Assembly: GCA_021159805.1 (NCBI GenBank)
Contig: JAGHDT010000370.1
Span: forward strand, 1 to 28,917
Source of the DNA: Anaerolineae bacterium
GTDB taxonomy: Bacteria; Chloroflexota; Anaerolineae; B4-G1; SLSP01
Direction: 5' to 3'
DNA: 28,917 nucleotides
Made by a program: the position numbers and the translations under genes. Each line of letters opens with the position of its first letter. Positions within the stretch are counted from its first letter, which is position 1. A model generated the notes under the pieces. It worked only from the letters and a program-made list of their open reading frames with translations. It was not told the origin of the DNA and searched no databases. Shown piece by piece: positions 14,341 through 14,600 of this stretch.

Positions 14341-14368
14341 TTGACAAACACGGTAATGCGGCTAGACT
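14341..14368 (+). promoter_or_regulatory. sigma70 promoter of the aromatic amino-acid operon
   Basis: TTGACA (14341-14346)-16 nt-TAGACT (14363-14368), about 60 nt upstream of the leader peptide. Confidence 0.75.
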
Positions 14369-14427
14369 AGAGTCAGGATAGCAACCTGCACTAGCAGTTG
14401 GGTGTTAGTTCTATGGAGTAAGGCAAT

Positions 14428-14514
14428 TTGAATCCTAACGAGACCTACATCTATTACACCTTCTATTTTAGCTGGCCCTCCCGGGTCGGTCGCTTCGCGC
14501 TGCTAGAAGGATGA
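14428..14514 (+). CDS. Attenuator leader peptide MNPNETYIYYTFYFSWPSRVGRFALLEG (TTG start; 4 Tyr, 3 Phe, 1 Trp)
   Basis: TTG at 14428 behind GGAGTAAGG. Codons 7-16 are TAC ATC TAT TAC ACC TTC TAT TTT AGC TGG, so 7 of 10 are aromatic. TGA at 14512-14514. Too short for the ORF track. Confidence 0.85.
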   Translation: MNPNETYIYYTFYFSWPSRVGRFALLEG

Positions 14515-14542
14515 TGTAGATCAAGAGATCCCAAGAGCAACC

Positions 14543-14578
14543 AAAGACGTGGAGCCGATCGGCTTCACGTCTTTTTTT
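14543..14578 (+). terminator. Attenuator terminator upstream of aroH
   Basis: AGACGTGGAGCC-GATC-GGCTTCACGTCT (12-bp stem, one G-U) followed by a T7 run, ending about 22 nt before the aroH start. Confidence 0.9.
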
Positions 14579-14600
14579 GTGCCAACCAAGGAGGGGATGG

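Follow-up and report, generated by a model that had tools for sequence, protein, structure and literature searches.

The E. coli leaders trpL, thrL and ilvL work through alternative hairpins, following the familiar 1:2, 2:3 and 3:4 logic. Leaders of this kind may read more than one amino acid: thrL reads Thr and Ile, and ilvL, in front of ilvGMEDA, reads Leu, Val and Ile. In many Firmicutes, T-boxes serve tyrS and the aro genes. A preliminary description of the locus reported here had started from the premise that leader-peptide attenuators read a single amino acid, which the textbook thr and ilv leaders already contradict. A further exception is the aroR leader of C. glutamicum, in which Phe-Tyr-Phe precedes the aroF operon (Neshat et al. 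2014, J Biotechnol 190:55, as described in PMC11802643). In the account of aroR given in PMC11802643, read-through rises on ribosome stalling and responded to Phe limitation, not to Tyr availability.

We analyzed a stretch of 28,917 nt from an Anaerolineae bacterium (hereafter the window; coordinates are on its + strand unless noted). Ahead of the aromatic gene cluster it very probably carries a ribosome-mediated (leader-peptide) attenuator that monitors the charging of tRNA-Tyr and tRNA-Phe and regulates an aroH-pheA-DAHP synthase-tyrA-aroA-aroE-tyrS-aroC(...) operon. The preliminary description had placed such an attenuator at the head of this cluster, and its claim is upheld by the anatomy of the leader, by ribosome-masked folds, by covariation and by 58 related loci. 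Rfam 15 gave no match in the window at the gathering score, and a search of positions 14250-14700 at E values up to 10 returned nothing relevant. T-box (RF00230) and Phe_leader (RF01859) models likewise had no match, either across the window or in the relaxed search of 14250-14700. The low-scoring Rfam matches were rejected as chance matches to the terminator hairpin. Full-text searches on leader peptides or attenuation in Chloroflexi and Anaerolineae, which did not extend to the survey of Lopatovskaya et al. from 2010 (cited in PMC4833913), yielded no description of the element.

The promoter, the TTG-started ORF of 28 codons, its aromatic block, and the terminator preceding aroH were all found where the preliminary description had located them. 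A sigma-70-like promoter lies at 14341-14368, with a -35 element TTGACA (14341-14346), a 16-nt spacer, and a -10 element TAGACT (14363-14368), together matching at 10 of 12 positions. Inspection of the sequences of many relatives revealed TTGACA-N16-18-TAnnnT sites at comparable positions 5′ of the leader ORF. Transcription probably starts near 14375, about 50 nt 5′ of the leader ORF. A putative Shine-Dalgarno sequence, GGAG, can be read at 14415-14418, 9 nt 5′ of the TTG. The leader ORF occupies 14428-14514, including the TGA at 14512-14514, and encodes the peptide LNPNETYIYYTFYFSWPSRVGRFALLEG. Within it, the regulatory codon block Y-I-Y-Y-T-F-Y-F-S-W (14446-14475) packs 4 Tyr, 2 Phe and 1 Trp codon into 10 codons, the first bases of which are at 14446, 14452, 14455 and 14464 for Tyr, 14461 and 14467 for Phe, and 14473 for Trp. 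The intrinsic terminator follows at 14543-14578, with a stem of 14 pairs (14543-14556 with 14561-14574), the loop GAUC, a U tract at 14572-14578, and a folding energy of -22.2 kcal/mol.

These leader elements are not a product of chance. When all six frames of the organism's own 3.5-Mb genome were scanned, 5.44 million windows of 10 codons were free of stops, and only 9 of these had 7 or more F/Y/W codons. The locus has the parts expected of a leader-peptide attenuator, namely a short 5′ ORF, a cluster of codons for the end products, and a terminator ahead of the first structural gene. It also has an antiterminator that is exclusive with the terminator, an anti-antiterminator at the regulatory codons, and a stop codon in a blocking position.

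The genes downstream all run in the same direction as the leader, and their products were assigned by Pfam. The first of them, aroH, encodes an AroH-type chorismate mutase (CM_1, E 4e-47); its Shine-Dalgarno sequence AAGGAGG is at 14588-14594, and its CDS (14601-14972) starts with the ATG at 14601. It is followed by pheA (prephenate dehydratase, 14969-15832), the DAHP synthase gene (15842-16906), tyrA (prephenate dehydrogenase, ending at 17775), aroA (EPSP synthase, 17772-19127), aroE (shikimate dehydrogenase, 19131-20132), tyrS (tyrosyl-tRNA synthetase, 20178-21461), and aroC (chorismate synthase, 21471-22844). Farther along are an aroK-aroB fusion of 528 amino acids (shikimate kinase/3-dehydroquinate synthase, 23415-25001), aroQ (type II dehydroquinase, 24998-25510), and an aminotransferase gene (25703-26875). 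The co-directional cluster thus covers the common pathway, the branches to Phe and to Tyr, and tyrS. A gap of 570 nt (22845-23414) without a recognised gene separates aroC from aroK-aroB, and the cluster is a candidate single transcript. This gap contains just one long ORF, which runs on the minus strand (22868-23356) and was not matched by Pfam.

Minimum-energy folding of the leader gave an outer helix, a small hairpin, and the terminator. In the outer helix, the 5′ strand (14442-14465), which has aromatic codons inside it, pairs with a 3′ strand (14504-14522) that contains the leader TGA. The small hairpin at 14471-14490 (14471-14478 with 14483-14490, -11.9 kcal/mol) is a predicted anti-antiterminator and holds the 5′ portion of the antiterminator strand in a paired state. 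That strand, UCGGUC GCUUCGCG, is at 14486-14499, within the leader ORF. Its partner, at 14548-14562, extends from the upper 5′ arm of the terminator, CGUGGAGC, across the loop and two bases into the 3′ arm. The resulting antiterminator pairs 14492-14499 with 14548-14555 and 14486-14491 with 14557-14562, for a total of 14 bp with one bulged C, and its duplex energy is -21.9 kcal/mol versus -22.2 kcal/mol for the terminator. An antiterminator drawn by hand in the preliminary description joined 14486-14496 to 14551-14562; these segments do pair, but the drawing was incomplete and missed the conserved core of GCUUCGCG with CGUGGAGC.

We modeled the nascent transcript by folding RNA that ended 5′ of the terminator 3′ arm and by placing a 29-nt ribosome mask at set positions. 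Without a ribosome, the outer helix formed and the terminator 5′ arm was unpaired with the leader. When the mask was placed on any one of Tyr7, Tyr10, Phe12, Tyr13, Phe14 or Trp16, the antiterminator formed, and when it was placed on the stop codon of this window, the antiterminator was absent. Folding of the alternative structures had been proposed in the preliminary description, which held that stalling on the aromatic codons would leave the antiterminator strand largely free and that a ribosome reaching the stop codon would cover it; the masked folds of the window agree, with part of the strand covered in the second case. In equilibrium folds of the full-length leader, the antiterminator was never seen and the terminator always formed, so the switch would have to be kinetic, as in the classical systems.

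The same folds were applied to related loci. In the ribosome-masked fold, the terminator 5′ arm paired with the ORF over 5 nt or more in all 56 loci tested. The unmasked fold also contained the antiterminator in 25 of the 56, and placing the mask on the stop codon gave ambiguous counts among the relatives. In 37 of the 58 loci, the antiterminator duplex was stronger than 95% of its shuffled versions.

An alignment of 28 relatives made with MAFFT was used to examine covariation. In the terminator, 95.7% of cells were paired and six pairs had compensatory changes. The outer helix had five such pairs, and the small hairpin, in which 76.7% of cells were paired, had three. The antiterminator core was paired in 97.2% of cells, compared with 31-52% when the partner was slid by 1-3 columns. 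Changes within the core were one-sided and wobble-compatible only (C-G to U-G and G-U to A-U), since CGUGGAGC, with which the core pairs, does not vary. The extension of the antiterminator into the terminator loop did covary, with UA to CG and CG to UA changes in six sequences each. In a swap test, pairing with a leader's own terminator arm and loop averaged -17.0 kcal/mol versus -15.26 ± 0.33 kcal/mol for permuted partners, and none of 2,000 permutations reached the native value, a significance that is overstated since related sequences are not independent. A column-shuffle control for the antiterminator on the class-wide alignment, in which the columns are nearly invariant, was not significant.

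Two short motifs stand out in these alignments. The CGUGGAG in the terminator arm is almost invariant across the class, because the segment pairs with two strands, so that a substitution there would have to be compensated twice. The GCUUCRCG strand is read in differing frames, giving R-F-A in L001 and L-H-A in L008, and this variation of frame between loci indicates conservation at the RNA level. For the aromatic block, conservation holds solely at the level of in-frame codons, with the order of Y and F differing between loci, and the N-terminal residues of the leader vary freely. To judge from these alignments, this is the pattern of conservation expected of a regulatory leader, not of a functional peptide.

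A search upstream of aroH and pheA in other Anaerolineae had also been proposed in the preliminary description. We searched relatives and a genome collection for AroH and extracted the upstream regions, and found a short ORF with a Tyr/Phe block followed by a terminator, 5′ of aroH, in 58 distinct loci. The 58 leader ORFs were 22-42 codons long (median 32) and started with ATG in 52 cases, GTG in 4, and TTG in 2. In these loci a hairpin with a U run (median -21.7 kcal/mol) lay 20-40 nt 3′ of the leader stop. A Shine-Dalgarno-like motif preceded only 22 of the 58. The leader ORF was absent from the upstream regions examined at AroH loci labelled Planctomycetota, Thermomicrobiales or Ktedonobacterales. 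The related contigs were labelled as uncultured Anaerolineales or Anaerolineae MAGs, and DNA of the window itself was found in hydrothermal-vent and marine metagenomes, and a check of RNA runs turned up none containing it.

We then built R1, a covariance model of the off-state, and searched an even sample of the class Anaerolineae comprising 151 genomes from 101 genera. R1 matched in 77 of the 151 genomes and in 60 of the 101 genera. Nearly all of the 83 full-length matches examined were located before aroH-pheA-DAHP synthase, aroH-DAHP synthase-tyrA-aroA, pheA-DAHP synthase, or DAHP synthase alone. Aromatic-codon leaders of the R1 family were also observed before tyrS alone (L150 and L152). 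Three others (L143, L147 and L148) precede genes that, from N-terminal sequences only, appear to be of Liv-type amino-acid ABC transporters (permease or binding protein); these may be uptake systems for aromatic amino acids.

The organism's own genome harbored one true copy of R1. A second match, on contig C260 (E 0.02), was rejected, as it lies inside a protein-coding gene. A crude scan of the same genome for a hairpin with T5 or more, combined with a Met-started ORF containing an amino-acid run and therefore blind to TTG starts, yielded no convincing further leader-peptide attenuator. The crude scan recorded 59 strong hairpins with T5 or more in the 3.5 Mb of G000. Canonical intrinsic terminators look scarce in G000, and the aro attenuator is among the clearest.

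The preliminary description had proposed that the leader integrates Tyr, Phe and Trp, such that starvation for any one of them would turn on the common chorismate pathway. We consider this unlikely. A Trp codon is indeed present at the 3′ edge of the block in the window (14473-14475), the masked folds predict that stalling at this codon would free the antiterminator, and the proportion of leaders with a Trp codon, 22 of 58, is well above the background of ~1-2%. Against this, no leader has more than one Trp codon, and 36 of the 58, including that of the closest relative L002, have none. In comparison, at least 2 Tyr codons were present in 58 of 58 leaders (mean 3.6), and Phe codons in 57 of 58 (mean 2.4). 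The position homologous to the Trp codon is variable in relatives, where Trp, Tyr, Gly, Arg or Cys codons are found; since it is located in the small hairpin's 5′ arm, RNA structure may shape it. Furthermore, trpE has its own T-box (RF00230) in four relatives of the same genus, with scores of 94-104 bits, above the Rfam gathering score (L160-L163 in G002, G012, G011 and G021, respectively, at about 400-770 in each locus). Pfam scans found no trp gene in the aromatic cluster, as the preliminary description had noted for the window; in the organism's own genome, which is 84% complete, trpE was not found and trpA is on a 2-kb contig. Because of the codon counts in the 58 leaders and the trpE T-boxes in the four relatives, the conserved logic, as read from these sequences, is that Tyr and Phe are sensed via the leader peptide and Trp separately via a T-box. 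The folds predict that a minor Trp input could pass through the single UGG, which is not a conserved feature of the design. The ORF might on the other hand be incidental, the leader being a riboswitch, a T-box-like tRNA-sensing RNA, or an RNA bound by a protein that recognises UAY/UUY repeats, a type of attenuation via triplet repeats that is known from TRAP. We regard this as very improbable. The class-wide invariance of CGUGGAG might suggest recognition by a factor, but it is explained by the two pairing partners of the segment, and a start codon, an open frame and a structurally fixed stop have been kept in 58 loci despite the free N-terminus. In addition, no Rfam family matched even at E up to 10, while the Rfam search does detect the T-boxes before trpE in relatives.

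A different question is whether a leader-peptide attenuator is still functional in this particular copy. In L002 and L003 the leader opens, in frame, at ATG GAA CAA/CAC. The window has ATG-GAG-TAA at 14413-14421, a remnant of the ancestral leader start that is in frame with the leader and leaves an ORF of two codons. The TAA closes a frame that is kept open in the closest relatives, so that the TTG at 14428 is the sole in-frame start 5′ of the aromatic block. Contigs from four metagenome runs belonging to three studies were identical at 14413-14421, and this agreement shows the TAA to be genuine, not introduced by assembly. Because of the TTG start and the ancestral ATG now followed by an in-frame TAA, translation of the leader may be weaker here than in relatives. 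The attenuator could accordingly be decaying, with a poorly translated leader and with the terminator acting mainly as a constitutive terminator or dampener and not as a responsive switch; the truncated frame, the recurrence of the TAA in all four runs, and the weakness of TTG as a start codon would all fit such decay. We nevertheless find it quite improbable. The same substitutions that created the TAA also created the GGAG 9 nt before the TTG, and everything 3′ is intact, including the in-frame aromatic codons, the position of the stop, and all of the helices. Among the variants found in the metagenome contigs (T14427C, C14460T and T14565C), C14460T is synonymous and T14565C restores pairing by changing a terminator G-U to G-C. 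A constitutive terminator ahead of an essential pathway would also be costly. We read the missing ATG as a start-codon shift, not as decay, and regard it as the main ground for caution on this copy.

For a leader-peptide attenuator sensing Tyr and Phe, we infer translation of the ORF, ribosome stalling, coupling to polymerase, and the position of the 3′ end as follows. Transcription would begin about 50 nt 5′ of the leader ORF, and a ribosome initiating at the TTG (14428) would trail the polymerase. With ample Tyr-tRNA and Phe-tRNA, the ribosome would reach the TGA at 14512 and cover the 3′ end of the antiterminator strand. After its release, the outer helix and the small hairpin (14471-14490) would lock the antiterminator strand away, the 14-bp terminator would then form, and transcription would terminate in the U tract, close to 14578. 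A shortage of either Tyr-tRNA or Phe-tRNA would stall the ribosome within 14446-14469. A stalled ribosome would melt the outer helix, and stalls at later codons would melt the small hairpin as well. The freed 14486-14499 would pair with 14548-14562 once the latter had been transcribed, so that the terminator would be blocked and polymerase would enter aroH.

Leaders of similar construction were also seen before genes of other pathways. One of them, L146 (G167:C81, 2592-2790, - strand; R1 score 49.9 bits), encodes the peptide MAGALLASYTTTTGTPATGRCFALRRVCQK and lies before the genes for aspartokinase and aspartate-semialdehyde dehydrogenase (asd). It combines the GCUUCGCG strand and a CGUGAAG terminator arm with a leader of Thr codons, SYTTTTGTPAT. 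Thr-rich leaders before aspartokinase were observed in related genomes at L206, L207, L212 and L214. At L133 (G087:C11, ~125022-125178, - strand), a mixed leader, FSTFTFTTT, precedes pheA-DAHP synthase, with aspartokinase directly after. It is conceivable, with chances that we put close to even but on the lower side, that one class-wide scaffold (the CGUGGAG arm, the GCUUCRCG strand, and regulatory codons pairing with the stop region) has been duplicated and re-coded per amino acid in Anaerolineae, with the codon block tracking the content of the operon. In the small sample behind this idea, Tyr/Phe blocks occur before aro genes, pheA, tyrA, tyrS alone and Liv-type ABC genes, Thr blocks before aspartokinase(-asd), and a mixed Phe/Thr block before pheA-DAHP synthase-aspartokinase.

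To our knowledge, almost no gene regulation has been studied experimentally in Chloroflexota. The element described here is an uncatalogued, well-conserved family of cis-regulatory RNA for this phylum, present in 60 of 101 sampled genera of Anaerolineae and absent from Rfam 15. Its distribution and predicted folds suggest that Anaerolineae use classical coupling of transcription and translation alongside T-boxes. For annotators, it provides a clear marker for the starts of aromatic operons. Understanding of how attenuation works is unchanged by it, as the mechanism is the textbook one of trpL, pheL, pheM and hisL, and leaders reading several amino acids are already known.

The nearest counterparts of the locus in E. 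coli are pheL-pheA and pheM-pheST, which share with it an aromatic-codon leader, a terminator, an antiterminator, and a stop codon that blocks the antiterminator when the ribosome is not stalled. As in pheM-pheST, an aminoacyl-tRNA synthetase would be under control, in this case tyrS. Unlike the present block, those of pheL and pheM are runs of Phe codons only, and the locus has no Rfam match. It also differs from pheL and pheM in that its antiterminator strand lies in a loop closed by the pairing of the regulatory codons with the region of the stop codon. With trpL, thrL and ilvL it shares the alternative-hairpin logic; it differs from them in the amino acids read and is without sequence similarity to them, and the Trp branch in this genus uses a T-box. 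Like a T-box, the element is predicted to be a transcription attenuator that answers tRNA charging, but sensing would proceed here through a translated ORF and not by direct tRNA binding. Compared by functional description, as given in PMC11802643, C. glutamicum aroR is similar: its short leader ORF, in which Phe and Tyr codons are mixed, precedes a DAHP-synthase operon. The locus described here differs from aroR, so described, in belonging to another phylum, in its longer block of 4 Tyr, 2 Phe and 1 Trp codons, and in heading a far larger operon that includes pheA, tyrA and tyrS.
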